Source: Candidatus Sumerlaeia bacterium | GTDB lineage: Bacteria; Sumerlaeota; Sumerlaeia; SLMS01 | Assembly (NCBI GenBank): GCA_038208905.1 | Contig: JBBQYG010000003.1 | Location: 2,697 to 66,696, forward strand | Direction: 5' to 3' | DNA length: 64,000 nt | Shown here: positions 1-61,374 of the stretch, piece after piece | Layout of the letters: each line of letters begins with the position of its first letter | Numbering within the stretch: position 1 is the first letter of the stretch | Position numbers and translations under genes: made by a program | Notes under the pieces: generated by a model | Seen by the model: only the letters and a program-made list of their open reading frames with translations | The model's database searches: none | Told to the model about the DNA's origin: nothing

Positions 1-1788
1 ATCGTCTTCTATTTCGTCTTCATGTTTGGGATGGGTTTTGTCTTTACGGGATTCAACAAGAGCGCCAGCGACTACTTTCGCGGCGGCGGCAGCATGGTAT
101 GGTGGCTGGTGGGAGCCACGGCATTCATGACGCAGTTCAGCGCGTGGACCTTCACCGGCGCCGCGGGAAAGGCCTATCGTGACGGGTGGATTGTCGCGGT
201 GATCTTTATCGGCAATGGCTTCGGCTATCTCGTCAACTATGCCTGGTCGGCGGCCCGATTTCGAAACCTCCGCCTGACCACGGCGATCGAGGCGGTGCGT
301 GATCGATTCGGGGCGGGCAACGAGCAGGTATTCACCTGGCTTCAGGTTCCTATCAGCTTCATCTATGCGGGAATTTGGCTCAACGGCCTGGCGCTCTTCG
401 CCTCCGCGGCGTTCGATATCGATATGTCCTACACGATCTGGATCGTTGGCGTTGTGGTGGTGGTCATGTCGGTAACCGGCGGCTCGTGGGCGGTTGTGGC
501 CAGCGATTTCATTCAGATGCTGCTGCTGATGTCGGTCGCGGTGGTTACGATGGTGATGGCTCTCAACCATCCGGCGGTCGGCGGGATAAGCGGCTTTGTG
601 CATCGTATCCCCTCCAGCCACTGGAACTGGAGCGAGAACGCGCGGTGGGATATTGTGTGGCTGTGGGTGATCGCCACGTTCATCGGCCAGATCGTGAAGA
701 ACAACAGCCTGCTGGAATCCTATCGCTACATGTGCGCCAAGGATGGACGTCACGCGCGTCGGGGGGCGCTACTCGCCGCCGTGCTGATGTTCATCGGCCC
801 GATCGTTTGGTTCGTGCCTCCGATGGCGACGGCCATCATCGAGCCTGATCTTGCCTCCGTGTTTCCCAAGTTGAAGAATGCCAGCGAGGCCGCCTATATC
901 TACATCGGCGCCTACGCCATGCCGACGGGGATGCTCGGCCTTCTGGTTTGCGGAATTTTTGCCGCCACGATGTCCTCCATGGATAGCGGACTGAACCGCA
1001 ACGCTGGCATTTTCGTCAAGAACTTCTATAAACCATTCTTCGCGAAGGAAGCTTCCGACCTGCACTTGCTCACTGTGGGGAAGGTGTCCTCGCTCGTCTT
1101 TGGAGGCGTCATCATCCTCGTGGCATTCTTCATCAAGAGGATGGAGGGATACGACCTCTTCAACTTGATGACCCACTTCGGCGCGCTCGTCACAATCCCC
1201 TACACGGTGCCGCTCATTCTCGGCATGATCGTCAAGCGAGTGCCCGCATGGTCGGCGTGGTCCACGGTGCTCGTGGGATTCATTTTCTCGCTCAATCTGG
1301 CGGGCCTCTCGCTGGGTGGCCGCGCCGTCGTAGAGAAGTTCGATGTCTCGATCATCGGCTTCGATGGCCTCACCGATCGCGAGGCGCTCGACCTCACCTT
1401 CAGCATCAGTACCTTCGGCAACATCATCGTGTGCAGCCTGTGGTTCCTTGCCACCGCGGCCTTCCATCGCTACGCCTCGCCGGCTTACAACGCCCGGGTT
1501 GACGATTTCTTTGCGCGCATGACTTCGCCGGTGGACTATGAGAAGGAGGAAGGCCGGAGCACCGACGGACGCCAGGGCATGGTGCTGGCCAGCATGTGCT
1601 ATATCTACGGTGGATTCGTGGCGCTGTTGGGCTTGGTGTTTCCCAACACCATCGGCGGGCGCCTTTGCTTCTTCTTCTGCGGAGGCATCATGCTGACGGT
1701 GGGATACCTGCTCCACCGATCTGCCAAGTCCTACAACAAGAAGCAGAATGTGGACGACGAGGAGAAGAAGAATGCCGAAGCTGTATAA
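1..1788 (+). CDS. Sodium:solute symporter (SSS) family transporter, 5'-partial (continues upstream of window)
   Basis: 588-aa ORF from 22. The in-frame codons 1-21 upstream (IVFYFVF) are hydrophobic with no stop. Multi-TM composition. The segment SASDYFRGGGSMVWWLVGATAFMTQFSAWTFTGAAGKAY matches the conserved SSS-family TM2 region, which normally lies ~40-70 aa into the protein. Confidence 0.7.
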   Translation: MVFYFVFMFGMGFVFTGFNKSASDYFRGGGSMVWWLVGATAFMTQFSAWTFTGAAGKAYRDGWIVAVIFIGNGFGYLVNYAWSAARFRNLRLTTAIEAVRDRFGAGNEQVFTWLQVPISFIYAGIWLNGLALFASAAFDIDMSYTIWIVGVVVVVMSVTGGSWAVVASDFIQMLLLMSVAVVTMVMALNHPAVGGISGFVHRIPSSHWNWSENARWDIVWLWVIATFIGQIVKNNSLLESYRYMCAKDGRHARRGALLAAVLMFIGPIVWFVPPMATAIIEPDLASVFPKLKNASEAAYIYIGAYAMPTGMLGLLVCGIFAATMSSMDSGLNRNAGIFVKNFYKPFFAKEASDLHLLTVGKVSSLVFGGVIILVAFFIKRMEGYDLFNLMTHFGALVTIPYTVPLILGMIVKRVPAWSAWSTVLVGFIFSLNLAGLSLGGRAVVEKFDVSIIGFDGLTDREALDLTFSISTFGNIIVCSLWFLATAAFHRYASPAYNARVDDFFARMTSPVDYEKEEGRSTDGRQGMVLASMCYIYGGFVALLGLVFPNTIGGRLCFFFCGGIMLTVGYLLHRSAKSYNKKQNVDDEEKKNAEAV

Positions 1789-2149
1789 GGTCGCCCAAAT
1801 GGACGACATTGCGTCAGTGCCTTGCCCCTGCGGCATGTCGCGCCGCGCCTTTGTGGAGCCCGACAATCCTGTGGCGACGATCCATATGGTGGACATCTCC
1901 ATCGATGCCCGCACACACTATCACAAGAGGCTGACGGAGATATACCTCGTTCTGGAGGGCGAGGGCCACATGGAGCTCGATGGAGATCTGATTCCCGTGA
2001 AGCCGATGACGGCGATCTTCATCAAGCCCGGATGCCGCCACCGGGCCGTCGGGAAAATGCGCATCGTGAACATCCCAGTACCCGCGTTCGATCCCACCGA
2101 CGAGTGGTTCGACGAGGCGCCATCGCAGACACCGGGAGGATTGAGATGA
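1772..2149 (+). CDS. Cupin-domain protein (KdgF-like small cupin in a uronate-polymer locus)
   Basis: Start taken at internal MPKLYKV (ATG 1772), overlapping the symporter end. ~125 aa. Two-His cupin motif region HYHKRLTEIYLVLEGEGHMELDG ... FIKPGCRHRAVG. TGA stop at 2143-2145. Confidence 0.6.
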   Translation: MPKLYKVAQMDDIASVPCPCGMSRRAFVEPDNPVATIHMVDISIDARTHYHKRLTEIYLVLEGEGHMELDGDLIPVKPMTAIFIKPGCRHRAVGKMRIVNIPVPAFDPTDEWFDEAPSQTPGGLR

Positions 2150-4506
2150 AGAAGGCCCTAATTGCTATTTCAGTTCTGACGACTCTGATCGCGCCCGCCA
2201 TGCTTCCCGCTCAGGAGAAGAATGGCTACGGCGGCTTTTCAGTTTCGGAGGAGCCCATCCTTCCCGCCAAGGAAGTCCATCCATCGCTGTGGTTCCGCGC
2301 CGATGGGATCGAGGCCCTCCGCGCGAAGCGAAACGCCGACACTCATGCCGCGGGGCTCTGGCGGAAACTCGCCGCCAGCCTCTACGTCTCGATGCCGATT
2401 CCCGCCCTTCCCGCACAGGATGCCAATAAGGAAGCTGTGCACAAGTACTACGGCGCCATGCCCCAGATCGCCGCGGTCTGCGCGTTGATGTCGATCCTCG
2501 CCGACGACGAAGCCGACCGGGGTCGATTCGCCCAGCGCGCGAAGCAGGCGCTGCTCCGCTCCTACGATGGACCTCTCTATGAGATCGATCCCAAGAATCA
2601 GAGCACCGCCGCCGACGAGATCTATCGCGGCACCTGGGCACAGCACTACTGCGCCGCCTATGACTTCCTGCACGGCAGCCTAACCCCCGAGGAGGACAAG
2701 GCCATCCGCGCTTCATTCGTAAAGGAGGCCACGTATATGCACGAGAACCTCATGGGATGGGCCGACCGCCCCCACAACCACCTGTCCAAGCCGGCATGGG
2801 GCCTCGGCACCTTCGCCATCACGCTTTCCGACCTGCCGGAGGCGAAGGACTGGCTGCACCGCGCGCTGACCGCCACCAACATGAACACGCGGGACTACTT
2901 CAGTGCCGATGGCCTATATCGCGAAGGATCGATGTACTACCTCTTCTCCCTCATCAATTTCGTCCCTTTCCTCTATCACTACCGCAACGCTGCCGGGGTG
3001 GACCAGTTTCCCGAGTGGCAGCCCGCCTTCGAGTGGCCGATCCTTACGCGAAACGGGCGTGGGTGGATGCCCAACATCGAGGATTCGTATATACGACCGT
3101 TTCCCTCAGAAATGGTCGCTGGCGCCTATCGCGGTGCCAAGACGCGACTCTCCGCCGATGGCGACCTTGCAGGCGTGCTCCAGTGGAATCACCGCAATAC
3201 CGACTATGCCCCCTTTGACGAGTCGGAGCGCGTCGAGGGATTCAACTACACCGGAGCAAGCTGGGACTATAACCGCGAATTTCACGAATTCCTGTGCTAC
3301 GATCCCACCATCAGCCCTGCGGCGCCCACGGGATCCTCCACGATGTTTATGGAGAGCGGCCAAACGGTGTTCCGCAATGACTGGTCGTTCAAGGATCCCG
3401 CTCACCGATATCTGCTGTTTCACGGTGTCGCCGAGGCCGAGAACCACCAGCACTATGAGCACCTGAGCTTCATCGTGCAGGCCCAGAACCAGATGATGGC
3501 TTCCGATTCCGGCTACGTGCGTAAGAGCTATGGCGAGGCCATTCGCAAGACATGGTATCTCACCTCGGAGGCCCACAACGTCGTGACCGTCGATGGCTCC
3601 GCGCCGATTGATCCCAAGAAGAACGTCACGCCGATCTCGCGCCAACGGCTTGATACTGAGTGGTTCGACTTCGAGGAGAAGGAGGCTCCCTACGAGAAGG
3701 GAGGCCGCCTGAGGCGCGCCATTGCATTCGCTGGTCAAGACCACTGGATCGTGCTGGACCGCGTCGAGCTTCCCGAGGAACGCGAGATCGCGGTGCTCCT
3801 CCACGGAGGACGCGGCTCCCACGCAGCGGATGGTCCACGCCACACCTGGACTTACGGCAAAGACACCTACGGTCCGGCGGCGGCGATGGACGCCTTCGTG
3901 CTCGTGCCGGGGGCTGCGAATGAAATTCGCAACGGCGAGATCACGTATATCAAGGGCGACTACAAGGAGTTCCCCTATTTGCGCGCGGCGCTTCGCGGCA
4001 ACGCGGCTGGCGCGATGCAGATTGTCGTTCCGCGTGCCGTCGACGCACCCGTTCCCTTGTTTGAGGACCTCACCGATGGTGAGTTCTATGGCGGGCGGCT
4101 CATCTGGGCCGACGGCACCACCGAGGAACACGCCGCCCGAAATCAGTCGGGCGTCTATTCGGGCGGCAACTTGAGAAGCGATGCGACCTATTCGGGCGCC
4201 CGATTCAGCAAGGATGGGCTGGCGTGGTTCGCGATGCGGGAAGGCACCTTTCTCGAAATTGGCGGAGCGCCGATTGTTCGCTCAGAGAGCCCAATCACGC
4301 TTCTTGCCGGCCGCATTCTGGAAGGCAACCGGATGGAGATCGTGTTGTCTGAGGACGATGGCGCCACACTCACGATCGGAGCTCCGAATGCGATGCCCGT
4401 GAAGCGGGCGTTGCTCCGCGGCAACGAACTGCCGATGAAGCCCGACGACAGGGGGCTCCTCACGCTATCGGTCTCCGCCGGATCGCGCATCACGCTGGAA
4501 TTCTAG
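2147..4506 (+). CDS. Heparinase II/III-like polysaccharide lyase (PL12/15/17/21-type fold), secreted
   Basis: Start at MKKALIAISVLTTLIAPAMLPAQE (signal peptide), with GGAGG RBS at ~2133-2139, rather than the ORF-track start 1822. Hepar_II_III-like motifs DGLYREGSMYY and HQHYEHLSFIVQAQNQMMASDSGY, followed by a beta-sandwich C-terminal region. Confidence 0.7.
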
Positions 4507-4519
4507 AAAGAACGGCCCC

Positions 4520-5314
4520 ATGTCCAACTACAAGTTCTCCGTATTCGTCAAGCCGTGGAAGGGAAAGCCGCTTCCCGAGATTGCGGCACATATCAAGTCG
4601 CTCGGATTCGACGGCATCGAACTGCCGGTTCGCGCCGGGTTCGACGTGACTCCCGAGAACTGCGCGGCGGAGCTTTCCCGCGTGGCGGCTTTGCTCGCTG
4701 ATCATGGTCTGCGTATATACAGCGTGGCGGCGGAACCAACGGATAGCCTCATTCGCACGCTGGGATCGCTTGCCAATAAGCCGCTCATCCGCGACATGGC
4801 GAAGATCGAAGCGACCGAGACCTATCTGGAGGGCGAGGCCCGCTACAGGGCCCGCTATCGCGCGCTGCTCCCGGTCCTCGCCGGAGAGGGCGTCGCGATC
4901 GGCGTTCAGCACCACGCCAGCCGCTTCGTCACCAACGCCTCCGGCCTCCGCCGTCTCGTGGAGGACTTCGATCCGAGTCTGATCGGAGCCGTGTGGGATC
5001 CCGCGCACTGCGCGTTGGCGGGAGAGATCCCCGATCTCGCCGCGGACCTGCTCTGGTCCCACCTCAAGATGATCAACCTCAAGAACGCGATCTGGCGGAT
5101 GGTAACGGGGCCAGAGGCGGAGGAAGTTCGATGGAACCGCTACTGGACCTCCGGACGCATGGGCATCGCGTCGTGGTCCGATGTGGCAACCGTGCTCCGC
5201 CAGCGCGGCTATCGCGGCGTTCTGACGATCTGCGCGGAGTACGCCGACGAGCATTCGGTCGACCGGCTAATCGCCGAGGATATCGTCTTCGCGCGCCGCG
5301 TTTTTCAGTTCTGA
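4520..5314 (+). CDS. Sugar phosphate isomerase/epimerase (xylose isomerase-like TIM barrel)
   Basis: 264 aa. IKSLGFDGIELPV ... GVQHHASRF ... motifs typical of AP endonuclease 2/xylose-isomerase-like TIM barrels. ATG at 4520. Confidence 0.7.
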   Translation: MSNYKFSVFVKPWKGKPLPEIAAHIKSLGFDGIELPVRAGFDVTPENCAAELSRVAALLADHGLRIYSVAAEPTDSLIRTLGSLANKPLIRDMAKIEATETYLEGEARYRARYRALLPVLAGEGVAIGVQHHASRFVTNASGLRRLVEDFDPSLIGAVWDPAHCALAGEIPDLAADLLWSHLKMINLKNAIWRMVTGPEAEEVRWNRYWTSGRMGIASWSDVATVLRQRGYRGVLTICAEYADEHSVDRLIAEDIVFARRVFQF

Positions 5315-7474
5315 CCGCACATCGCCAGAAATCACAAAACCGCTGAAGGACACACCGGACTTCATCCAGTCGGGGCCCACGTCCTGCGGCGTCAGCGGCG
5401 TGAACTCGATGGGACCGCTTCCTGCCTGGTCCGCTCCCGCGTCCTTGGGATCCGCTCGCGGCTGACCGTCCATGTCCTCTATGACAGTGGGATAGGAGCC
5501 AGCGGCTCCGCCGATTGCGGGGCTACCAGTGTGGGGGCGCATCAACCCATCCGCCGCTCGGGCGAGTAGCGGGCTCGCCTGGGTGATTCCCGTCGTCGTG
5601 CTGATCCCAAGCGTGCCGCCGAACCAGAGGTTCCCCTCGTAGGCGGTACTGAGGGGAGGCGTGACGTACTTGTAGGCCCTCTGGCTCCCGGAGAGCTGCA
5701 TCACATTGTTGGCAATGGTATTGTCGAGCGGCGCCAGCGTGGCATCGCCCCTGCTGCTTACGTTGCCGATGACTATTGCCTCCTGGCAGTCCACAAACGT
5801 GTTGAACGCAATCAAGGCTCGTTCCACCCGCTGGTAGCGGTTCAGTGGCGAACTCGGGACGCCATTCATCAGCGCCACCGTGGCGCGAAGGTTTGTGCCG
5901 CGCATCCCCTCGAAATAGTTGTTTGTGACCACGTGGTCCGGCCCCACGATGCGGACGCCGCTGGTATCCGGCTTCCCGGCGCCGAAGAAGAAGTTCTGGT
6001 CCACGATGCAGGCGGAGCCGTGGCGCAGCGTGAGCTGCCCCAGCGTCTCGCGGAAGGTATTGCCGCGGTAGACGTTGCCGACAGACTTATTTGAGATCGT
6101 CTCGATCTCGCCGTCGCAGCGCAGGAAGAGGTTCCGCTCCACCACGGCCTCCGATGGCCGATTGGAGACATCGCTCGTTCCGATTCGGATGGTCTCGTAG
6201 CCATTGTCCGTCCCGAGGGTTCGGTCGCCGAAGTAGTTGTTGTCGATGCGCGTCCGATTCGCCGGGCCGCTGGCGGCCGGCCACACGACGAGCTGGACGC
6301 CGATGTGATTCATGCCGGAGAACCAACAGTGATCGATGCGATTGTTAAGGCCATAGACGCTCACCCAATCGTAGTCGGTGCTTGCCGACGCCGGATTGTA
6401 GTCGATGATCGCCGACTGCGTCAGGCGACAATTGTTGGCAAGCCGGCTGGAGCCATCGCGGAACTCGACAATCGGGTAGCCGCCCGGCAGGGTGCCGTCC
6501 TCGAACTTCAGCCCGGTCACCACCATGTAGTCGCCGGCGATCTTGAGTGAGGATGCACACGTCAGGATCGTCTTGCCAGGCTGCTCCCCACGGAGCGTGA
6601 TCGGGAGGGCGTCGCTTGTGCCACCCGTGCCATTGCGCGAGCGGTGGCCGGTGAAGACCAGCGTCGCATCCTGCCAGAATCCCGACCGCATGACGATCGT
6701 ATCGCCGGGATCGGCGATCATCAGGGCGGCATCGAATTCCGCGACCGTAGAAACCACGCCCGGCGGGGGAGTCCCCGTCGGAGTGGGAAGCGGCGTCGGC
6801 GTCGCTATGGCACCGCCATTGAGCAGTTGGTTCAGCTCGGCGGCGCCAAGGCCCGTATCCGTGGACATGATCAGTGCGTCGATGCGGGCGTCGTTCTCTC
6901 GGACGCCGATGCGGACTTCCAGCGCGTTCCCGAGATCGCCCGCCGCAACGGCAAAGCTCGTCGAAATGCCTGTGATCCAGGCAAAGCCGCCGCCATTTCC
7001 GGTGGCCGCGCTGCTCGTTGGATTGGCGGCGCCGAATGCAGTGGCCACCCAGACCGAATCGCTCGATCCATTCCCAGCGGTGCCGTTGTTGGAAGCCAGT
7101 ATATACAATTTGTAGGTGCCGGCGGTGGCGAAGCGCAGCCGATAAACGGCGATGCTTTCCTGCAAGGCTGAATCGGTCTGTGCGCGATGGGGCGAGGGTG
7201 GCGCCACTAGCACTGTCCCGCCACTGGTGCCCGCCACGGCGACAGGGGCCCAAACGCGGGCCGGGTTCTCCGGCGATCCGGTCTGGACGCTGTTCTGCAC
7301 GTCGTTTGCGGCGTCGGGATTCAGGATCTCGTCGGCGGCCTCGGCCTCGAACACGATGTAGTCCTTCCCCGACTCCTGATCGATCACCAGTGCGCTTGCG
7401 GTACTGGCAAGTGCCAGGAATGCCAGTGCCAACATACCGCCCATGCGGCGGATGTTCCTATTCATGCGGTCCAT
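5267..7474 (-). CDS. Secreted right-handed beta-helix polysaccharide lyase, PL6-like (alginate lyase/chondroitinase B family) with N-terminal carbohydrate-binding module and PT linker
   Basis: Signal peptide MGGMLALAFLALASTASA. N-terminal ~220 aa beta-sandwich. Linker TPTPLPTPTGTPPPG. Catalytic region VAEFDAALMIADPGDTIVMRSGFW ... NNYFEGMRGTNLRATVALMNG ... NTFVDCQEAIVIGN with parallel beta-helix repeats. Confidence 0.6.
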   Translation of the reverse strand: MDRMNRNIRRMGGMLALAFLALASTASALVIDQESGKDYIVFEAEAADEILNPDAANDVQNSVQTGSPENPARVWAPVAVAGTSGGTVLVAPPSPHRAQTDSALQESIAVYRLRFATAGTYKLYILASNNGTAGNGSSDSVWVATAFGAANPTSSAATGNGGGFAWITGISTSFAVAAGDLGNALEVRIGVRENDARIDALIMSTDTGLGAAELNQLLNGGAIATPTPLPTPTGTPPPGVVSTVAEFDAALMIADPGDTIVMRSGFWQDATLVFTGHRSRNGTGGTSDALPITLRGEQPGKTILTCASSLKIAGDYMVVTGLKFEDGTLPGGYPIVEFRDGSSRLANNCRLTQSAIIDYNPASASTDYDWVSVYGLNNRIDHCWFSGMNHIGVQLVVWPAASGPANRTRIDNNYFGDRTLGTDNGYETIRIGTSDVSNRPSEAVVERNLFLRCDGEIETISNKSVGNVYRGNTFRETLGQLTLRHGSACIVDQNFFFGAGKPDTSGVRIVGPDHVVTNNYFEGMRGTNLRATVALMNGVPSSPLNRYQRVERALIAFNTFVDCQEAIVIGNVSSRGDATLAPLDNTIANNVMQLSGSQRAYKYVTPPLSTAYEGNLWFGGTLGISTTTGITQASPLLARAADGLMRPHTGSPAIGGAAGSYPTVIEDMDGQPRADPKDAGADQAGSGPIEFTPLTPQDVGPDWMKSGVSFSGFVISGDVRSELKNAAREDDILGD

Positions 7475-7584
7475 CGATCAAGCTCCTCTCGGGTGTTCCT
7501 GAAAGTGCCGCCGGGCAGTCCAAACTGGGGCCGCACCGGCGGCGCGATGATGGTCATTTGGCTGTGCGTCTGGCAATCAGCCAA

Positions 7585-9120
7585 TCAGTAGTACAACTGC
7601 CACTGCCTGGCGTCGCTGTAGGTTCCAAACTGATATGCGCCCGCGTCGGGCTTCAATACGCCGTTGTTGGGTCGGATATTGCCTTCGATGTCAACGGCGC
7701 CGATCGCCGTGGCGATGGCGGCGTTGGCGGTGCCCTGGGCAATGACGGGCGAGCCCGCCGACTGCTTGCCGTTGGAGTCCAGGAGCAAGTCCCCGATCGT
7801 CGCGGTATAGAAGCGATCCGCGCCCAGCACGGTGGAGTCGGTCGGTCCTCCGATCGCGTTTCCCTCGCGTGGATCCAGCCCGCCTCCGCCCACGATCTGG
7901 CTGGTGGATCCAAGGAAGTTCACGAAGACGCAGTTGGCCCAGCTTGTGACGGAGCTATTCGCCGAATTGATGGCGCGCTCTCCGCCTGTTCCCGCGGCAA
8001 TGAACGTCGTATGGTAGGCACGGCCAGTGGAGCCCTCCGTGTAGAAGCCACGCGCAGCGGAGCCGGTCCCTTCCTGCGACTTGATAACGGAATTGAAGAC
8101 ATTGACCTCGTTCGACGCGGTCGCATCGGCGAAGCGAATATCGAGAGTGCGATCGCTGCGCGTGCCTGCCGAGTTGTCGAGCACGCACCGGTTGAACGTG
8201 ATCTCCGCGCCGGTGATTGCGGCCAAATCCGGTGCGCGAAAGACTTCCTCGAAGCACGTGATGCTCGTATCCACAAACGTGAACTTGGAGTTCCCCCCGG
8301 GGAAACCGGTGAACTCGATACCGCGCCCATAGTTTACCTGGGTGATGTTCGTATTCGTCATCGTGCATCCGTCGAAGGTCCAATCGTGGTTGTTCCCGCC
8401 GGAGGCCACGTTGACGAGGCTGCGCCCAGCGGTGTTGATATTCACGTTTGTGAAGCTCGCCGTCAGGCCGTCGATAGGGACAGTTCCCTGCTGGCGGATC
8501 GTGGCCTTGTTGTTGGACTGCGTTGCCGTGGTGGAGACGACGCCACCCGTCATCGAGAATGTGATAGGCGCACCGGCAACCACGCCGAGGTTGAACTTGA
8601 TCGCCTCGCCCGCATCGATGGAAACGGGGGGACTCACAAGGCCGGGGCCGGAGTGGATTACGCTTGAGTTGTTGATGAGGGTGATCGTCACCGGGAACGA
8701 GGCCGACTGATCGATGTTCATCGCCGCGCCGGTGTTGGACCCCACGGTGGGGATTAGTCCGGTCCCGTCGGCGGATTGATTGCGGTCAATCGTCACATTG
8801 TCGAAGGTAACGTTCACCGCGCCGGTCGGCGGCGCCTCCGTGGCCACCAGGGCCTCGCCGTTGGAGTTCGCGACAATCACTCCGGGAACCGTCCCGCGGA
8901 TCGTATAGGTCTTTCCGCCAATCAGAACGACAGTCCCGCGGTAGGTGCCCGCCTCGACGATCTGGATTTCGCCATTGTCGCTCACGGCGGCGATGGCGCT
9001 CGCAAGGGTCGAGTGCCCCGCGCTCCCTGAGATGTTGACCTGCTCAACCGGGGCGCCGTAGGCGGCCCCAGCGGCGCAAAGCAATAGGGTCGTCGTCCAA
9101 GTCATTTTCGATCTCCGCAT
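7585..9120 (-). CDS. Secreted right-handed beta-helix (pectin lyase fold) protein
   Basis: Signal peptide MTWTTTLLLCAAGAAYGA. Repeated NxT/G-rich beta-helix rungs (NVTFDNVTIDRNQSADG, FTNVNINTAGRSLVNV, CTMTNTNITQVN). 511 aa. Confidence 0.55.
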   Translation of the reverse strand: MRRSKMTWTTTLLLCAAGAAYGAPVEQVNISGSAGHSTLASAIAAVSDNGEIQIVEAGTYRGTVVLIGGKTYTIRGTVPGVIVANSNGEALVATEAPPTGAVNVTFDNVTIDRNQSADGTGLIPTVGSNTGAAMNIDQSASFPVTITLINNSSVIHSGPGLVSPPVSIDAGEAIKFNLGVVAGAPITFSMTGGVVSTTATQSNNKATIRQQGTVPIDGLTASFTNVNINTAGRSLVNVASGGNNHDWTFDGCTMTNTNITQVNYGRGIEFTGFPGGNSKFTFVDTSITCFEEVFRAPDLAAITGAEITFNRCVLDNSAGTRSDRTLDIRFADATASNEVNVFNSVIKSQEGTGSAARGFYTEGSTGRAYHTTFIAAGTGGERAINSANSSVTSWANCVFVNFLGSTSQIVGGGGLDPREGNAIGGPTDSTVLGADRFYTATIGDLLLDSNGKQSAGSPVIAQGTANAAIATAIGAVDIEGNIRPNNGVLKPDAGAYQFGTYSDARQWQLYY

Positions 9121-9185
9121 AGTTTTTTATCCCAAGGAGGAGTTGAACACCGGTGGCGAATCCGGATGGATCGTGCGGGGCCGGA

Positions 9186-9199
9186 CTAACGCGCGTTAG
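9186..9199. promoter_or_regulatory. Perfect 14-bp palindrome CTAACGCGCGTTAG (candidate operator, copy 1)
   Basis: Read directly from the sequence. Lies 66 bp upstream of the start of the minus-strand beta-helix gene at 9120. Confidence 0.45.
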
Positions 9200-9363
9200 A
9201 TTAGCGTTCAATCACGATCACGCTCCCGTCAACCACAAATTGGACCGGTTTGATCGTTTGATCGGCGATGGCTCCACGACTCCGCCAGAAACGAGTGGGC
9301 GCTTCATGCATAGGCAGCGGTTGGGTTCGCAGTCTGGTCGCGGGAATGCCATCCTCGCGAGCA

Positions 9364-9377
9364 CTAACGCGCGTTAC
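9364..9377. promoter_or_regulatory. 12-bp palindrome core TAACGCGCGTTA within CTAACGCGCGTTAC (candidate operator, copy 2)
   Basis: Read directly from the sequence. Lies 66 bp upstream of the ATG of the plus-strand hydrolase gene at 9443. Mirror-positioned relative to copy 1 in the same divergent intergenic region. Confidence 0.45.
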
Positions 9378-9442
9378 CGTCTTGACAATCCGCCGGGACC
9401 GGCAAAGCGTCTTGCCGATCCATCGGAATTGAGCTCGCCTCC

Positions 9443-11761
9443 ATGCGCCTTGCCGTTTCGCTCCAGTCGCCCGTTCCCCCAGTCCTGATGGCACTGGCCC
9501 TTGCGCTCGCCGCCACCGCAGGCCGGTCCGGTGCGGTACCGTCTCCCATATGGGAGGATTTTGCCGCCAATTCCGGCACGGCGACCCAGCCAATTCTCCC
9601 CGATTTCTCGTACTCGGGCTATCGCCAGGGGGAGGTGGGCATCCCCACCGTTGCCCACACCGTCTTCGATGTGACATCCTATGGCGCGATTCCCAACGAC
9701 GGCCAGATGGACGGACCAGCAATTCAGGCGGCGATTGTCGCGGCGGAGGCAAATGGCTCGGGCATCGTCTTCTTTCCTCCCGGCCGGTTTCACCTCAACA
9801 CCGCCTCCGACGTGGGCACCTCGATCATGATCCACGGCAGCAACATCGTCCTGCGCGGCAGCGGCCAGGGCCCCGGCGGCACCGAACTTTTCATGGAGAG
9901 GAATTTCGAGCCGGCCTCGCCGACGGATTTGGCATCCACACCCTTCATGTTCATCGCCGTTCCCACTGTGGTTGGTGACCCCACGCGCGCCACCATCACC
10001 GCCAACGCCGCGCGGGGAACGCGTATCCTGCAAGTCAGCACGATTTCGGGCCTGGTCGCCGGCGACTGGGTCAGCCTCTATCTCACCGACATCGACGCCG
10101 TGCCGGACTTCCTCGCGCCCTACTCCGCCGATCCCGCGTGGACGGACCTCTCCACTTCCGGAATCCTCGTGAGGGAGCGCCACCGCATCGAGTCCATCGG
10201 CGTGGGAACCGTTACCCTGCGCGAGCCGCTCCTGACCGACATCGACGCGACGCACGACTGGACGTTGCGCGGCTACCGCCGCATGGAGGAACTCGGCTTC
10301 GAGGACATCGCCTTCATCGGCAACTGGCAGGGCCCCTTCGTCCACCATCGCAGCGCGCTCGACGACGGCGGCTGGAGTGCCCTCGACATCACGCGCGCCG
10401 TCAACTCGTGGATACGCCGCTGCACCTTCGCCAACTGGAACTATGGCGTCTTCCTCGATACTTGCTCCGCGTTCTCGATTCTTCAGGTGACGCTCGATGG
10501 CACGCCCGGGCACCACTCGATCCACGCTAGGCGCGGCACAGGGGTGCTTGTCGGGCTCTCCCGTGATTTCTCGTCCCACTGGCACGGCCCCAGCATGGGC
10601 TACCAAAGCGCCTCCACCGTTTACTGGCGCTATGGCTACAACAGCGATTCGTCCTTCGATTCCCACGGATCCCAGCCCTACTCCACGCTGCTCGATGTTG
10701 TTTCCGGAGGCCTCAAATATGGCCGCTGCGGCGGATCGATCGCTGACATGCCGAATCACCTGCGGCACTTCGTCATGTGGAACTACAATGGCACGGGCTC
10801 GCCAGTTTCCAACTTCAACTTCTGGCAGACCAGCGGCTCGCGGCAGATCTTCGTGAAGCCCATCATCGTTGGCTTTCACGGAGCCTCCACCACGTTCAAT
10901 GCCTCGGCGCTTCAGTTGCTTGAGTCCTATGGCACCCCAGTGGAACCCGAGTCGCTCTACGAGGCGCAACTCGCGCTCCGACTCGGCGCGTTGCCCCCTT
11001 GGATCCAGGACGCCAAGGGAGAGTGGGAGGCTATCAAGGCGGGCATCCCGATCCCCACACTCACGACTCCGGCCACCAACACGGTCATCATGCCTGGCGA
11101 CTCGCTCGCAATGGCCGCCAGCATTCCCGCCGAGCAGCTCGCCGCCACGGCGCGCGTCGAGTTCCTCGAAGGTGACAACGTCCTCGGCAACGATACCTCC
11201 TCGCCCTTTGGCTTCACCTGGCCTTCAGCGCCCTATGGCACCTACGCGCTGCGCGCGCGCGCCCTATCCACGGGCGGTGACGAGGGATTCTCTGGCACCG
11301 TCATCGTGTATGCGGGGCTGCTGCCCCAACCCGAGGCGATCCCCACTGGCCTTACCGTCAGCGACGCGCAGGATCCTAATCTGGGTCCGAATGCCATCGA
11401 TGACGATTTCGGCACGCGGTGGTCGGCCGAGGGCGATGGCCAGTGGATTTCCTTCGACCTCGGCGGTGTGATCCCGGTGAATCGCATCGACTTGGCATGG
11501 CACCAGGGAGACCTTCGTCGCGCCAGCTTTTCGCTGGAGCTTTCGGACAACGGCACCGACTGGAGTCGCATGCTGGACACGGAATCGAATGGTACCACGA
11601 CCGGATTCGAGACGCACTACTTCGTCGGCGGTCCCGCGCGATACGTCCGTATCGTCGGCCACGGAAACACGGTGAACGATTGGAACAGCATCACGGAGGC
11701 CGCGATCTTCAGTCCCACCGACGGTGCCGCCCGGGTGCAGGAATGGTGGATGGTCCAGTGA
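9443..11761 (+). CDS. Secreted pectate-lyase-superfamily (PF12708-type, GH28/GH55-like) beta-helix hydrolase with C-terminal F5/8 type C (discoidin) domain
   Basis: Signal peptide MALALALAATAGRSGA. N-terminal SYGAIPNDGQMDGPAIQAAIVAAEANGSGIVFFPPGRFHL matches the Pectate_lyase_3 motif. C-terminal GPNAIDDDFGTRWSAEGDGQWISFDLGG...DLAWHQGDLRRASF matches discoidin. Confidence 0.65.
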   Translation: MRLAVSLQSPVPPVLMALALALAATAGRSGAVPSPIWEDFAANSGTATQPILPDFSYSGYRQGEVGIPTVAHTVFDVTSYGAIPNDGQMDGPAIQAAIVAAEANGSGIVFFPPGRFHLNTASDVGTSIMIHGSNIVLRGSGQGPGGTELFMERNFEPASPTDLASTPFMFIAVPTVVGDPTRATITANAARGTRILQVSTISGLVAGDWVSLYLTDIDAVPDFLAPYSADPAWTDLSTSGILVRERHRIESIGVGTVTLREPLLTDIDATHDWTLRGYRRMEELGFEDIAFIGNWQGPFVHHRSALDDGGWSALDITRAVNSWIRRCTFANWNYGVFLDTCSAFSILQVTLDGTPGHHSIHARRGTGVLVGLSRDFSSHWHGPSMGYQSASTVYWRYGYNSDSSFDSHGSQPYSTLLDVVSGGLKYGRCGGSIADMPNHLRHFVMWNYNGTGSPVSNFNFWQTSGSRQIFVKPIIVGFHGASTTFNASALQLLESYGTPVEPESLYEAQLALRLGALPPWIQDAKGEWEAIKAGIPIPTLTTPATNTVIMPGDSLAMAASIPAEQLAATARVEFLEGDNVLGNDTSSPFGFTWPSAPYGTYALRARALSTGGDEGFSGTVIVYAGLLPQPEAIPTGLTVSDAQDPNLGPNAIDDDFGTRWSAEGDGQWISFDLGGVIPVNRIDLAWHQGDLRRASFSLELSDNGTDWSRMLDTESNGTTTGFETHYFVGGPARYVRIVGHGNTVNDWNSITEAAIFSPTDGAARVQEWWMVQ

Positions 11762-11783
11762 CTGCGGCACCACGCGGGACGCC

Positions 11784-12800
11784 ATGAGAAAGACAAGAAT
11801 CCTCCACATCGCGCAGGACCAACCCGATCCCCGAATCTGGAGCGCTGTCTTCGTCCAGGCGCTGAAGGAGTTCGGCGAAATCGAGCTCGTCGCAGGCGGG
11901 CAGTCGATCCCCGATGCCGAACGCGCGCGCATGATCCGCGACTGCGAGATCCTTCTAACGTGCTGGGGCGCGCAACGCTGCCCCGAGGAACTCGCGAGCG
12001 ATCCCGGCCAGCTTAAGTATATCTGCAACATCACGGGCGAACTGGCGCGGTTCCTACCCGTCGAGTTCATTGACGCGGGAATTCGCGTCAGCAACTGGGG
12101 GGACTATCCCGCCATCGGCGTGGCAGAGGGCGCAATGTCGCTCCTGTTGGCGACACTCAAGGACACCCACTACCAGATCCAAAACGTCCGAAACGATGGC
12201 TGGAAGATGGACATGCACTATCGCGGCGGCTCCCTCTACGATGCCGAGGTCGCCATCTACGGCCTCGGCGTCATCGGCCAGCGCTTCCTCGAACTCATCC
12301 GCCCCTTCGGAGCGAAGCTCCGGCTGTACGACCCCTATCTTGGCCAAACGCCCGATGGCTGCGTCCGCTGCCACTCGCTCGAAGAAATGATGGAGGGCGC
12401 GCAGATCCTCGTGATTCACGCAGCCCTCACCGACGAGACCCGCGGATCCATCACGGCGGATCTTCTCGCGAAACTACCGCGCCACGGCGTCGTCATCAAC
12501 ACAGCCCGCGGCGGCATCATCGATCAGACCGCGCTGTTCCACGAGCTGGAGAGCGGTCGCCTTCGTGCCGGCCTGGACGTGCTGGAGCCCGACCATCTGG
12601 CGGAGGACCACCCCGCCCGCCGCTGGGAAAACCTGATCCTGACCGCCCACCGCGTTGACCACGGATGGCCAGACTTCAACGAGCCACCCACCCGACTGAA
12701 TCGAATGCAGGAAATCTGCATCGACAATATCGGGCGCCACCTCTCGGGAGAGAAACCTCGCTTCCTCTACGACCGCGCGCGCTACCTTAGGAGCACTTGA
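11784..12800 (+). CDS. D-isomer-specific 2-hydroxyacid dehydrogenase family (NAD-binding)
   Basis: Start at internal MRKTRILHI. NAD-binding AIYGLGVIGQRFLELIRPFGAKLRLYDPY and catalytic-domain VVINTARGGIIDQTALFHELESGRLRAGLDVLEPD. TGA stop at 12798-12800. Confidence 0.75.
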   Translation: MRKTRILHIAQDQPDPRIWSAVFVQALKEFGEIELVAGGQSIPDAERARMIRDCEILLTCWGAQRCPEELASDPGQLKYICNITGELARFLPVEFIDAGIRVSNWGDYPAIGVAEGAMSLLLATLKDTHYQIQNVRNDGWKMDMHYRGGSLYDAEVAIYGLGVIGQRFLELIRPFGAKLRLYDPYLGQTPDGCVRCHSLEEMMEGAQILVIHAALTDETRGSITADLLAKLPRHGVVINTARGGIIDQTALFHELESGRLRAGLDVLEPDHLAEDHPARRWENLILTAHRVDHGWPDFNEPPTRLNRMQEICIDNIGRHLSGEKPRFLYDRARYLRST

Positions 12801-14200
12801 GCGTGACCATCCGCCCGCTGATCGCCGCCATGTCACTTACACTGTCATCCGCCGCACTCCCCGCCGCAGAGCCCTTCCCTGATGGCGCCCGCGTGGTGCT
12901 CTTTGGCGACAGCATCACGCACAATGGCTTCTATGGAACCTACATCGCGCACTTCTACGAGACGCGCTTTCCAGACCGGAAGGTGGAGTTCATCAACGCC
13001 GGAACCAGCGGCGGCAATACCACCGACGGATTCGACCGCATCGAGTGGGACGTGCTTTCCCACAACCCCACCGACGTCGTCATCAACTTCGGCATGAACG
13101 ATGTGGGAACCTCCCAATACACCGGCCCGGAGCCCGCGCGCACGCGCACCACCGACGGCATGGTTTCGCGCTTTGAGGAGCGGATGACCGAGATTCTCGA
13201 TAGGCTGAAGGGCGCTGGCATCAAGAGGATCATCCTCACGATTCCCACACCTTATGACCAGACAGGCAATCACGAGCGCGAGAGCGCGGTCGGCAAGAAC
13301 GACGCGATCATCCGATGCGGAGAGGCGCTGAAGCGCTTCGCCGCCGAGCGCCAGCTCCCACTCGTGGATTTCAATTCAACCCTCCTGGCCCTGAACGCAA
13401 AGTATCAACCCGCTGATCCCAGCTTCACCACCATCAGCCCCGACCGCGTGCATCCCGGCAAGCCTGGTCACCTCGTGATGACGTCGGAGTTCCTAAAAGC
13501 TCAGGGGCTTGCCACTTCCGTTTGGGAGGCGCGCATCGACCTCGCCAAGCAAGGCGACGCTACCGCCGAAACAACCCGCGCCAAGATTTCCGCCATTCAG
13601 CAGTCGGCGGATTCCGTCACTTGGACAATGGAGTTGGAGGCGATTCCCTTCACCGTGGATGCGGAGCCCGAAGCCTCGACCAAGCCATCCGCCCTTCCCG
13701 CGCTGGAGTGGATTCCCTTCGAGTCGCAATTCAACCGGGAGATCCTTCGCATCGATGGCCTTTCCGCCGGACGCTGGGAACTCCGCATGAACGACAGGGA
13801 CGTGGGCACCTACTCGGCGGATGCGCTGGCGATGGGCATCGATTTGCGGCGCGCGGAGGGGACTCCCCAGAAGGAACTCTCCCTCAAGATGCTGAACCTC
13901 GCGCTCGACCGGCGCGAGGAGGAGCGTAAGCTCCGCGCGGAATCCTGGATTCGCACGCGCGTCCTCGAACCCGCCGGCGTGGACGTCACCGATTTCGCGG
14001 CCTGCGACGCGGCAATTGCGGAATGGAGAAAGGCCGATGACTTTCAGGATGGATGGAATCGCTACGCCGAGCAGTATGTCGAGTTTCGTTCCGCCGAGAG
14101 CATTGCCAAGGTCCAGGCGCGCATCGACGCCTTGAAGGCCCAAATCCGGGCGGAGGCCCAGCTGGCGCCGGTTGCCTGTGTCCTGCGCCGTGTCACCTGA
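12797..14200 (+). CDS. SGNH/GDSL-family hydrolase (esterase), secreted
   Basis: Signal peptide followed by VVLFGDSITHNGFY (block I GDS), GGNTTDG and INFGMNDV blocks. The start could be TTG 12797 or GTG 12803, overlapping the upstream stop. Confidence 0.65.
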   Translation: MSVTIRPLIAAMSLTLSSAALPAAEPFPDGARVVLFGDSITHNGFYGTYIAHFYETRFPDRKVEFINAGTSGGNTTDGFDRIEWDVLSHNPTDVVINFGMNDVGTSQYTGPEPARTRTTDGMVSRFEERMTEILDRLKGAGIKRIILTIPTPYDQTGNHERESAVGKNDAIIRCGEALKRFAAERQLPLVDFNSTLLALNAKYQPADPSFTTISPDRVHPGKPGHLVMTSEFLKAQGLATSVWEARIDLAKQGDATAETTRAKISAIQQSADSVTWTMELEAIPFTVDAEPEASTKPSALPALEWIPFESQFNREILRIDGLSAGRWELRMNDRDVGTYSADALAMGIDLRRAEGTPQKELSLKMLNLALDRREEERKLRAESWIRTRVLEPAGVDVTDFAACDAAIAEWRKADDFQDGWNRYAEQYVEFRSAESIAKVQARIDALKAQIRAEAQLAPVACVLRRVT

Positions 14201-19574: not shown

Positions 19575-20015
19575 CTACATCTGGAGCAGACTCTCTGAAA
19601 CGATCCGCTCGATTTCCTTCTCCGCGCTCTTATAGTCGCCGCGCTCCAGATAGAGCTGTACGATCAGCCGCCGCACGGCGCTCTTCACGTTCTGCTGGGG
19701 AACCTTCACGACGAGTTTCTCCAGCCATGTGATGGCCTTCCCCACGTCTCCCTGTGCCCGCTCCAGCTCGATGATCTGGACCGCGCAGAGGTAGATCGAC
19801 TTCTCCGGCTCCGACTCGGCGCTCAGGCTGCGCAGGTGCGGGTCCGTCCAGTGGGAGCTTGAAACCGTCAGCACTTCCCCCTGATTCACCGCCGCCTCCA
19901 GTTCAACCTTTTGGGGCGCCAACTGCTCCTCCGCCTGCTGGGCCACGATCATCGTGCCCCCTGCTGCCATCGCCCCTGCCACCGTTAAAGCCAGACCCCA
20001 GTGCTTGAGCCTCAT
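19575..20015 (-). CDS. Secreted hypothetical protein
   Basis: Signal peptide MRLKHWGLALTVAGAMAAGGTMIVAQQ. 146 aa. Charged helical C-terminal part. Confidence 0.5.
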   Translation of the reverse strand: MRLKHWGLALTVAGAMAAGGTMIVAQQAEEQLAPQKVELEAAVNQGEVLTVSSSHWTDPHLRSLSAESEPEKSIYLCAVQIIELERAQGDVGKAITWLEKLVVKVPQQNVKSAVRRLIVQLYLERGDYKSAEKEIERIVSESLLQM

Positions 20016-20209
20016 GGACGTGCCCTCCTGAACGGAATTTGATTCTTCCCACTGTACTCAAGTTCCTTGCCAACTTACCCAGCGGCAAGGGCAACGCCTC
20101 TGGTACCGACAAACCCACAGCGATTCCCAATTCCCCCCTTCAACCATTCCCCTTTCCCAGCGCCCCCCTCCCGCATACTGTATTCACGCGAGGCCTGAAT
20201 CCACACCCC

Positions 20210-21556
20210 ATGACCACCAAGAGCCGCAAGACCCCCATCACGGCGCCCCATCGGCTGCACCAGATGCTTCATCACCTGGGGTGGTCGCTCGGGGCATTGG
20301 AGAATGCCCAGCCCCTCGCCTGGGGGCATGGCACCACGGCTGCCCGAGGGTCTTGGCAGGCGGCGCTGCTCCCCGATGGGCAGGTGCTGCTCCTGATCCG
20401 GACCGAGAACCCCCTTCCCCAGCTCGGCGAATCGTTCAAGCGCTATGAGGATCTGGCACCCATGCACGCCGAGCTCCGTTCGGCTCTTCAACGCGAGCGC
20501 ATCGCCGGGCGCCATGTCCTTCTCTTCGATCCCGTCATGGGCGCGCAGCTGATCGACTTCGCCCAGGAGGACGTGCTTCTGGACGCCCGGGGAGAGGACG
20601 AGGTGACTGATCGACTCCTCCCGATACTGAATCTCAACGCCCTAGCCAAGGGCTCCCTTGTATCGTTCCCCCGCAAGACGCCGCACCACCGCGCGCGGGA
20701 GCTCGCGGATTGGACCAAGATTTGGTCCGCGCGCATCGGCGCCGCATCGGCCAGCTCGCCCGAGATCGCGCGACAGTTCCTCTTCTGGATGCACCTGACG
20801 AGGCTGGTGGAGCATCTGGGGCTGCTTTCCGCGAAGGGGAGTGGCTTCGCGGAGTATCCGCTCACGCCTAAGGTCGTGAACCCGGTCCGCTTCCTCACGC
20901 GGATCTTCACACCGCTCCATCGCGACTGGAACCTCCTGCAGGGCGCGCCCCTCGAGGTCCATCGCCAGATCGCCCACCGCGCCCACGAGGCGGAGCAGCT
21001 GGCGCCATGCCTCGAATCCTACAGCCGTATCTCGCGGAGCAAGTTCTCCGCAGCCATTTTCGCGGAGGCATTTGCCGACGAAGAGCTACGACTCGCGAGC
21101 TGGCGGGGATCGATCATGGAGTCCCCCGCGGCGGCGCTCGACGACCCGGCGCTGCGCCTGATCGAACCCACGACGATCAATCTGGACCAGACCGGATTCG
21201 CGGTGCTTTTCTCTCACTTCGATGCCATTGCCGAGGATCTTCGCCGCCTCGCCCGCGACCAGGCCGTGGCGGCTGAACGGGGCGCCCGCCCGGGGCTCCA
21301 AATGGATGCCTTTGCATCGGTGCCGCCCGCAATTCTGGAGGAGGAAGCTCCGCGGCTAGCCCTGCAGGTCGGGCTACGCGTCAAGACCTCGCGACGCGAT
21401 CGTGGAGAGGTTGCGCGGCTTGCCCTGCTCGCCCACGCGGCGGAGTGGCACGCGCGAATTGGCCGTGCCGCGCCGATCTTCCCGGCTCCGCGAATAGATA
21501 CGCCAGCGGCGCCACCGCCCCCGAGGCGACCCCCAGCCGATCCGAGTCTCAACTGA
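20210..21556 (+). CDS. Hypothetical protein
   Basis: Long ORF 20039-21556. Start assigned at internal MTTKSRK. No recognisable family signature. Confidence 0.4.
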   Translation: MTTKSRKTPITAPHRLHQMLHHLGWSLGALENAQPLAWGHGTTAARGSWQAALLPDGQVLLLIRTENPLPQLGESFKRYEDLAPMHAELRSALQRERIAGRHVLLFDPVMGAQLIDFAQEDVLLDARGEDEVTDRLLPILNLNALAKGSLVSFPRKTPHHRARELADWTKIWSARIGAASASSPEIARQFLFWMHLTRLVEHLGLLSAKGSGFAEYPLTPKVVNPVRFLTRIFTPLHRDWNLLQGAPLEVHRQIAHRAHEAEQLAPCLESYSRISRSKFSAAIFAEAFADEELRLASWRGSIMESPAAALDDPALRLIEPTTINLDQTGFAVLFSHFDAIAEDLRRLARDQAVAAERGARPGLQMDAFASVPPAILEEEAPRLALQVGLRVKTSRRDRGEVARLALLAHAAEWHARIGRAAPIFPAPRIDTPAAPPPPRRPPADPSLN

Positions 21557-31356: not shown

Positions 31357-31618
31357 TGGAGGGTGTCCCTTGTCGTGAAAATGAAAATCGCCGCGGCGGA
31401 TGCCCCGGAGACCGGGTCAAGTAGAGGGAAATGGCGGGGTGTCACAATGCCAATTTCGAGCGGGGGAGACGAGCACGGGAGTTCCATCGCGAATCACTCG
31501 ACCGGATTCGACGTCGAGGCGAATTCCGACTTGCCCTAAGACGCAACCAACTGAGTTGCTGCAACAAGGCCGGACTTCAGGAGGTCGTTGCTTGGCAAAG
31601 AAACAGCAACAGAGCCGA

Positions 31619-61228: not shown

Positions 61229-61374
61229 AGCGCAGAGGCGCTGGAGGAGCGTCGCAGGCTGTTCTTTCGGAACCTGATGCGGTCGCGGCGCGCGGTTTCA
61301 GTTGGCAGTCTCCCATTGCGTCTTGGACCCGTCGGCTATTGAATCGCGTGACCATAAATTCGGGAGAATTGGAA

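Follow-up and report, generated by a model that had tools for sequence, protein, structure and literature searches.

Paired palindromes in an intergenic region of a Candidatus Sumerlaeia bacterium as predicted operators of a local LacI-family regulator of a uronic-acid polysaccharide locus

The stretch studied here comprises 64,000 nucleotides from a Candidatus Sumerlaeia bacterium (assembly GCA_038208905.1, contig JBBQYG010000003.1) and is referred to as the window. Two palindromes in its intergenic region 9121-9442 are very probably, as judged from sequence comparison, the operators of a local LacI-family transcription factor that is encoded by a neighbouring gene and controls a locus for uronic-acid polysaccharides. 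The region is 322 bp long and separates two divergent open reading frames (ORFs), one at 7585-9120 (minus strand) and the other at 9443-11761 (plus strand). What is observed is the motif, together with its conservation, its solely promoter-side location and its co-occurrence with a regulator gene; binding by the protein, the sign of regulation, the positions of the promoters and the nature of the inducer are predictions. An initial annotation, made from the letters of the window, had proposed an operator for a dimeric factor controlling both promoters, and this proposal now appears well founded because the motif is kept at both ends of the spacer, lies at 5' sites in eight genomes and is accompanied by a LacI-family gene that carries a site of its own.

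Two palindromes in the divergent spacer

The exact 12-mer TAACGCGCGTTA occurs at 9187-9198 and 9365-9376 and has no further exact copy in the window, so the two palindromes lie where they had first been placed. The 14-mer common to both copies is ACTAACGCGCGTTA. Since the expected number of exact copies of the 12-mer, calculated from the base composition, is about 0.002 per 64 kb, two copies located 178 bp apart in one spacer are not attributable to chance. With up to two mismatches allowed, CTAACNCGNGTTAG has 3 matches in the window, compared to 0.69 expected. A chance origin of the palindromes is excluded by the expected count, by the conservation of the spacer and by the distribution of the sites over several genomes, the last two of which are described below. 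A blastn comparison of the spacer with a plasmid collection returned no match. The copies had been described as twin perfect palindromes, which is correct for the first, perfect over 14 bp, but not for the second, which is palindromic over 12 bp only. The two predicted operators are as follows.

9186-9199: predicted operator O1, CTAACGCGCGTTAG; perfect 14-bp palindrome with a central CG, near the minus-strand operon
9364-9377: predicted operator O2, CTAACGCGCGTTAC; palindromic over 12 bp with one arm mismatch, near the plus-strand operon

The initial annotation also placed each copy 66 bp from the start of its gene and took this mirror symmetry as evidence for an operator. The distance itself is right for the longest ORFs, with 65 nt between each copy and the start at 9120 (minus strand) or 9443 (plus strand), but it depends on the start codon chosen. 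The ATG at 9105, which yields a protein of 506 aa, is the start picked by the gene caller on a near-identical public contig, and it has GGAG 7 nt upstream, while the ATG at 9120 has no Shine-Dalgarno sequence. If the minus-strand start is taken as 9105, the 66/66 symmetry is therefore lost. Nor is the symmetry conserved, because the gaps between operator and start in the orthologous loci are 30 and 48 nt (L015) and 27 and 61 nt (L020). Being start-dependent and unconserved, and with O1 and O2 placed differently relative to the TTGAC hexamers described below, the mirror symmetry was rejected as a functional feature and is incidental.

The sequence AAGGAGG is found on the plus strand at 9135-9141, whereas in the orthologues AAGGAG stands on the minus strand, where it is the Shine-Dalgarno sequence of the beta-helix gene. 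The ambiguity of the start codon arises from this difference in strand. A plus-strand ORF at 9153-9488, which lies behind AAGGAGG, was rejected as a gene: it has no Pfam match, and its GC content at third codon positions is 0.63, compared to about 0.8 for real genes.

Conservation and distribution of the motif

The window is colinear with, and 99.4-99.5% identical to, ENA ERZ27246989 k141_831389 and JGI Ga0105049_10000917. L022 denotes a contig near-identical to the window, on which coordinates equal the window coordinate plus 14144. A homology search also found an entry, P0001, identical to the 772-aa protein of the window. The same divergent gene pair is present in L015 (SRR29704194) and L020 (GCA_016125005.1), where the flanking proteins are just 54-56% identical. 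The spacer measures 322 bp in the window, 240 bp in L015 and 238 bp in L020, and apart from the motif these sequences align poorly. The motif is nevertheless present at both spacer ends in L015 (CTAACTCGTGTTAG and CTAACTCGTGTTTAG) and in L020 (CTAACTCGCGTTAG and CTAACGCGCGTTAA): O1 is kept at the same spacer end as CTAACTCGTGTTAG in L015 and CTAACTCGCGTTAG in L020, and O2 is kept as CTAACGCGCGTTAA in L020 and, with one nucleotide inserted, in L015. In a four-way alignment of the spacer, it is chiefly the two operators that stand out as invariant islands. Partial conservation is otherwise seen in one stretch only, a GTCAAC...TGGACCG block, in which the alignment resolves no invariant run.

In the fetched loci of eight Candidatus Sumerlaeota genomes, we found 18 sites with at most one mismatch to the consensus CTAAC-n-CG-n-GTTAG, every one of which lies between genes or at the boundary of one. 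In this consensus the arms and the central CG are constant, the CG in 18/18 sites, and the two positions that flank it vary freely and non-palindromically. The strongly conserved core is 14 bp long (16 bp if weak conservation is included), and the flanks show a weak A/T preference only. Two of the sites touch called genes. The site at L026 7746 falls within an aldo-keto reductase call that is 61 codons longer than its orthologues, and at L030 9883 the site shares 4 nt with the end of the gene upstream; these gene boundaries look mis-called. The sites precede the beta-helix/PL6, the PL29-like, the main catabolic and the pseudopilin/alginate-lyase operons, as well as the transcription unit of the regulator itself, and additional targets are PL6-like or beta-helix genes at L026 5098 and L018 13890.

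We also scanned the source species with a position weight matrix (PWM) trained on the seven other genomes only, the source species having been left out. Within the 78 kb of source-species DNA scanned, the matrix returned four sites and no more (24.1, 24.1, 21.7 and 18.4 bits), all of them 5' intergenic and all within one locus; O1 scores 24.1 bits and O2 18.4 bits. In 200 first-order Markov (Markov-1) randomisations the maximum score averaged 11.8. The next-best match in the source species reaches 14.2 bits (TTAACACGCCTTAG, window 35892-35905); it has two mismatches and overlaps the end of a TPR gene at its stop codon. We consider it a chance match because its score lies within the random range. 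The initial annotation had named a random distribution of the motif, inside genes included, as the observation that would speak against an operator; instead, the sites are promoter-side both in the 78 kb and in the eight genomes.

These data also bear on the idea that the palindromes act as hairpins, whether as an RNA leader, as an attenuator or terminator, or as a repeat similar to repetitive extragenic palindromic (REP) elements or miniature inverted-repeat transposable elements (MITEs). A stem of 5 bp with a loop of 4 nt can be drawn, and O1 probably lies inside the 5' leader of the minus-strand transcript. Such hairpins are weak, at -2.4 to -3.5 kcal/mol, and no stabler than shuffled sequence (z from -0.5 to +1.2). 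Moreover, 7/7 departures from the arm consensus among the 18 sites break the pairing and none is compensated, no terminator-like T-run or terminator appeared in a scan of 9050-9500, and no Rfam family matched 8900-9700, where a sub-threshold chance match falls within a coding region only. REP elements are typically far more numerous and not limited to the 5' sides of operons, while here just 4 copies occur in 78 kb, all of them 5' of operons. Owing to this weak, shuffled-like stability, to the uncompensated arms and to the lack of terminator or Rfam matches in those scans, we rejected a hairpin or RNA role, whose probability we regard as close to nil.

Two further scans concerned the reach of the system. 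A metagenome scan with a composite pattern of the operator, GTCAAC and TGGACCG found the same strain only, in JGI sample 3300007799, and thus added no independent genomes. A contig scan with the PL29-like protein returned a sole close relative, L001 (JASGMJ010000008.1, a Sumerlaeota metagenome-assembled genome, MAG); the rest were Actinobacteria and one Chloroflexi MAG that matched in the F5/8-C domain only.

The LacI-family regulator

No regulator gene is detectable in the 64-kb window, and the expectation that the cognate factor is encoded elsewhere is borne out by the 99.4%-identical contigs, in which a LacI-family gene lies 7.6-8.6 kb upstream. The gene and the two predicted operators near it are located as follows.

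L022 5557-6579 (window approximately -8587 to -7565), minus strand: LacI-family regulator gene, 340 aa, PF00356 plus Peripla_BP_1/3/4
L022 6609-6622 (window approximately -7535): predicted operator in the spacer between regulator and main operon, CTAACGCGGGTTAG, perfect site
L022, 69 nt upstream of the pseudopilin/alginate-lyase operon: predicted operator of that operon, CTAACGCGCGTTAG, perfect site

The regulator consists of an N-terminal HTH_LacI domain and a periplasmic-binding-protein-like, sugar-sensing domain. Its gene is divergent from the main catabolic operon, with a spacer of 73 bp between them, and the site at L022 6609 is 29 nt from its start codon. Orthologues lie inside the locus in L026, L028, L033 and L035, and the orthologous proteins of the seven genomes with a visible regulator are 58-71% identical. 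In 6/7 of these genomes a site with at most one mismatch lies upstream of the transcription unit of the regulator, at the following positions.

L022 6609
L028 9780
L026 7689 and 7746
L030 9883
L032 4227
L033 7792

In the seventh genome, L035, a weaker site, at 1077, is upstream of a longer same-strand run of genes that includes the regulator. The gene organisation varies: in L033 a small operon ends with the regulator gene, and in L030 and L032 it is located away from the main catabolic operon, with a site still upstream of its transcription unit. No regulator other than the LacI-family gene accompanies the motif in the 7 genomes. Its orthologous group has about 20 members, and the named ones all belong to Candidatus Sumerlaeota.

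The protein aligns over its full length with CcpA (2o20, E 3e-32, the closest solved structure), PurR and LacI. It reaches no NCBIfam equivalog cut-off (best score 131 bits versus 310), and against the CcpA equivalog TIGR01481 it scores 125.5 bits, compared to a cut-off of 442. The recognition helix, AGVARTTVSF, is nearly invariant in the orthologues, which fits the invariant arms of the operator, and R, T and F occupy the positions of LacI Y17, Q18 and R22. The hinge leucine, Leu64 of ATARSL, falls opposite LacI Leu56 and the CcpA hinge AVARGL in the alignments and is invariant in 17 relatives. In the known structures of LacI, PurR and CcpA, the hinge leucine contacts the central CpG of the operator. 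At the other end, the C-terminus (...DRKTT) aligns with LacI 325-329 and ends where CcpA ends, so the tetramerisation helix of LacI (residues about 340-357) is absent. Orthologues with at least 49% identity have no C-terminal extension or one of 2 residues, and four relatives at 38-45% have 3-18 extra residues.

Promoter geometry and proposed mode of action

The promoters are placed by two -35-like hexamers, whose positions relative to the operators are given next.

9227-9232, minus strand: -35-like TTGACG of the putative minus-strand promoter; O1 begins 33 nt downstream of its first base
9382-9387, plus strand: -35-like TTGACA of the putative plus-strand promoter; O2 ends 4 nt upstream

If the -10 box and the transcription start lie where we infer them, O1 would cover about -2 to +12, or more roughly the -10 region to +12, while O2 would span about -53 to -40. 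Both arrangements recur. TTGAC is located 22-38 nt upstream of the start of the operator at 7 sites in 4 genomes, O1 included, and the order of an operator, a gap of 2-4 nt and TTGAC is found at four sites, namely O2, L022 6609, L026 7746 and L028 9780. Because of this different placement relative to TTGAC, O1 and O2 are not functional mirror images. Both arrangements are compatible with steric repression.

According to the explanation that we favour, a dimer of the regulator would read the two CTAAC half-sites, with its hinge-helix leucine contacting the invariant central CpG. When no inducer is present, the factor would sit on the four sites of the locus and repress four promoters as well as its own gene. 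At O1 it would overlap the start region of the beta-helix/PL6 operon, and at O2 it would abut the -35 hexamer of the PL29-like/dehydrogenase/esterase operon. The site in the spacer between the regulator and the main operon would serve both to control the transporter/lyase/uronate-catabolism operon and to autoregulate, and the fourth site, upstream of the pseudopilin/alginate-lyase operon, would bring in that operon. The factor would then be freed by a product of the degradation of an acidic (uronate-containing) polysaccharide, and the whole locus would be de-repressed. The norm for the LacI family and the precedent of AlgO are the basis for this model of repression and release.

Several points weigh against the favoured explanation. 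The position of the regulator, being outside the window, is deduced from the 99.4-99.5%-identical colinear contigs. The scan of 9050-9500 for promoters and terminators found no full sigma-70 consensus, so the positions of the promoters derive solely from the -35-like hexamers. The PWM score of O2 (18.4 bits) is below the single highest maximum among the randomisations (20.3 bits). In L001, whose PL29-like gene is 56% identical and non-syntenic, a site is missing within 22 kb even when two mismatches are allowed, and the regulon is therefore not universal in the phylum. Genes of the HTH_18 (AraC-type) family lie near the locus in L018, L020 and L021. Finally, the sites that directly precede a -35 hexamer, O2 among them, could serve activation rather than repression.

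This last point leads to a different explanation, in which the same LacI-family factor is a dual regulator that represses at O1 and activates at O2 and at the main-operon site. Two distinct operator geometries relative to TTGAC do exist, and at the four sites where the operator precedes TTGAC by 2-4 nt its centre would be near -46. CcpA, the closest solved homologue of the regulator, activates from some upstream cre sites. A site that abuts the -35 hexamer would, on the other hand, also block sigma region 4 and the C-terminal domain of the alpha subunit, so repression explains the arrangement equally well, and the distance of only 29 nt between L022 6609 and the start codon of the regulator fits autorepression. 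Most local LacI-family regulators are repressors that bind in the ligand-free form (PMC4052901). With the promoter positions themselves being deduced, we consider dual regulation improbable.

The AraC-type genes would suit another alternative, namely that the operator belongs to a different factor, either AraC-type, GntR-type or encoded elsewhere, and that the LacI-family gene is merely one of its targets. A GntR/FCD gene adjoins the LacI-family gene in L030, and co-localisation is only correlative. The GntR gene is present, however, in one genome only, no AraC-type genes occur across 35-45 kb in the source-species contig or in L015 and L028, and the LacI-family gene is the sole regulator that tracks the motif in the 7 genomes. 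In addition, an even palindrome with a central CG is a signature of the LacI family, while AraC-family proteins typically use direct repeats. Taken together, these data make a different factor very improbable, and the LacI-family protein is the one that we expect to bind the operators.

A second conserved element and the spacing of the operators

Besides the operators, the spacer contains a second conserved element in front of the minus-strand promoter. This element, its copies in the regulated loci and the operator pairs discussed below are listed here.

9241-9250: second conserved element, TGGACCGGTT; sole exact copy in the window, 7-8 nt upstream of the minus-strand -35-like hexamer
TGGACCG(G/A)TT copies, L022: 5468-5477
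TGGACCG(G/A)TT copies, L015: 9817, 9831 and 9964
TGGACCG(G/A)TT copies, L020: 9840, 21934 and 22025
TGGACCG(G/A)TT copies, L026: 5079
TGGACCG(G/A)TT copies, L028: 9856 and 9871
O1-O2 pairs: window 9186-9377; L020 9790-9939; L015 9791-9953

The block GTCAAC-N8-TGGACCGGTT also adjoins the operator of the pseudopilin/alginate-lyase operon (L022 5454-5477), and TGGACCGRTT lies 7-8 nt upstream of a -35-like TTGAC at O1 of the window, at L022 5410 and at L020 9790. By a rough count, TGGACCGRTT is about 20-fold enriched in the regulated spacers. In L028 it forms an inverted pair, CCGGTCCA-N9-TGGACCGG. The element could be the site of a co-regulator or an upstream promoter element.

The centre-to-centre distances of O1 and O2 in three genomes are 178, 136 and 148.5 bp, equivalent to 16.95, 12.95 and 14.14 turns at 10.5 bp per turn. 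These near-integral values, from three data points, may point to placement of the operators on the same face of the helix, although the regulator is devoid of the tetramerisation helix, or may be a coincidence. Looping by a tetramer of the LacI type was rejected owing to the absence of the C-terminal leucine-heptad tetramerisation helix. A bolder proposal is that the spacer is a composite region with two inputs, in which dimers of the LacI-family factor bind cooperatively or by looping through a non-canonical interface and a second factor also acts. We put this forward as speculation and think it rather unlikely to be correct. If true, it would give the uncultured Sumerlaeota their first regulator-operator system amenable to experiment, and this system would control at least one enzyme of no described family, the 511-aa beta-helix protein.

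Genes under the operators

The predicted operators are located in front of the following transcription units of the source species, to which the pseudopilin/alginate-lyase pairs of related loci have been added.

5267-9120, minus strand: operon under O1; beta-helix protein 7585-9120, then PL6 chondroitinase-B-like lyase 5267-7474
9443-14200, plus strand: operon under O2; PL29-like lyase 9443-11761, 2-hydroxyacid dehydrogenase 11724-12800, GDSL esterase 12797-14200
22-5314, plus strand: distal part of the main catabolic operon; SSF transporter, cupin, heparinase II/III-like lyase, xylose-isomerase-like TIM barrel
Pseudopilin / alginate-lyase pair, L022: 4660-5340 / 3481-4623
Pseudopilin / alginate-lyase pair, L020: 21101-21775 / 19885-21090
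Pseudopilin / alginate-lyase pair, L032: 3403-4089

The first gene of the minus-strand operon encodes a secreted protein of 511 aa (or 506 aa), and the same gene pair is present in L015 and L020. The protein (7585-9120) has no Pfam or NCBIfam match and just four homologues in a collection of 5.8 billion proteins. Its AlphaFold (AF2) model has a predicted template modelling score (pTM) of 0.79 and a predicted local distance difference test score (pLDDT) of 67, and the matches of the model in the PDB are only right-handed beta-helix enzymes and tailspikes (GH28, chondroitinase B), with weak E-values of at least 2e-3. The earlier label of beta-helix thus stands at the level of the fold, with no family match behind it. 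The protein is a candidate founder of an undescribed family of polysaccharide lyases or hydrolases.

The plus-strand gene 9443-11761 contains, according to Pfam, DUF4955, PF12708, Ig and F5/8-C domains, and its operon is syntenic in L015 and L020. The protein matches the NCBIfam family "BT3328 family hyaluronic acid endo-lyase" with an E-value of 4e-108, below the cut-off of the family. BT3328 itself is a lyase of family PL29 whose substrates are chondroitin sulfate and hyaluronan (PMC6994673). Because of this match, the gene is better termed lyase-like than hydrolase, as it had first been called, a PL29-type lyase being the likelier assignment. A literature search for DUF4955 found no papers.

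The main catabolic operon, which extends into the start of the window, has the order CBM11-like protein, aldo-keto reductase, UxuA, DUF4955 protein, alcohol dehydrogenase, SSF transporter, cupin, heparinase-like lyase and TIM barrel. The TIM-barrel gene (4520-5314, plus strand) is intact in the window, with 264 aa, and is divided into two fragments (99 + 118 or 107 aa) in both 99.4%-identical contigs, which reflects either a strain or assembly difference or a frameshift.

A prepilin-type protein (N_methyl, GspG/PilA-like) is repeatedly paired with a gene of the alginate-lyase family under the same operator. The pairing is odd and may indicate a pseudopilin-like surface or secretion component dedicated to the polysaccharide system.

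Comparison with known systems and significance

The arrangement can be compared with four known types of local or global regulation. A survey of 1303 LacI-family transcription factors describes their motifs as palindromes of even length, 1173 of which have CG at the centre (PMC4052901); 72% of the surveyed regulators are autoregulated and the catalogued motifs are 16-22 nt long (Ravcheev et al. 2014, PMC4052901). Our system resembles these LacI/GalR local repressors in its even palindrome with a central CG, in sites that lie mostly tens of bp upstream of the starts (PMC4052901), in a regulator gene that forms part of the catabolic locus and whose own promoter region holds a site, and in the combination of HTH_LacI with a periplasmic-binding-protein fold and a conserved hinge leucine. 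It differs from them in the length of the core, 14 bp compared to 16-22 nt, and in a regulator that falls below every NCBIfam equivalog cut-off and belongs to a small orthologous group of Sumerlaeota.

In Sphingomonas sp. A1 the alginate cluster is controlled by AlgO, a LacI-like repressor that in its ligand-free state binds close to the promoters and is freed by unsaturated alginate oligosaccharides (PMC7641319, PMC9751261). The present regulator would likewise be a LacI-type repressor encoded in a cluster for a uronate polysaccharide, a likeness that is functional only; the two differ in the phylum and in the set of enzymes, which here comprises PL6, PL29-like, heparinase II/III-like and unclassified beta-helix proteins. 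AusR, a GntR-family repressor of the alginate polysaccharide-utilisation locus of Zobellia galactanivorans, responds to oligosaccharide products (PMC7641319). Like the repressor predicted here, it acts locally on the utilisation of an acidic polysaccharide, but it belongs to another family of transcription factors and hence has another type of operator, and a GntR neighbour is found here in one genome only. The closest solved structure, 2o20, is that of CcpA, and cre, the site of CcpA, is likewise a pseudo-palindrome of 14 bp centred on CG. The two systems differ in scope, since the sites of the present regulator are limited to one locus (four in 78 kb) and are not global, and in the half-site, which is CTAAC here and TGNAAN-CG in cre.

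The type of system is well known, that is, a set of LacI-family operators over a polysaccharide-utilisation locus, and the mechanism holds no surprise for a specialist. The novelty lies in the orthologous group, the CTAAC-n-CG-n-GTTAG motif and the regulon in an uncultured phylum. No regulon from Sumerlaeota is among the matches listed for literature on Sumerlaeota and polysaccharides, in which no search was aimed at regulons or transcription factors. To our knowledge, Candidatus Sumerlaeota (formerly BRC1) has no cultured model and no described regulon. The analysis provides a concrete predicted regulator-operator pair, with a protein sequence, a 14-bp consensus and four target promoters, and marks out a locus for an acidic (uronate-containing) polysaccharide whose operons are probably controlled together. 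Co-regulation would also offer guilt-by-association evidence that the 511-aa beta-helix protein and the PL29-like DUF4955 proteins share a substrate. The value of these results lies in annotation and in a handle for experiments or synthetic-biology parts, with no new principle involved.

Other genes in the window

Two genes away from the locus deserve mention. The plus-strand gene 31400-33730 encodes a protein in which a KAP-family P-loop NTPase domain is, unusually, fused to an FGE-sulfatase (formylglycine-generating-enzyme-like) domain at the C-terminus. The second, 61339-63078 (plus strand), encodes a homologue of the animal-type protein-arginine deiminases (PF03068 PAD, E 4e-61, together with the PAD middle domain), a family that is uncommon in bacteria.

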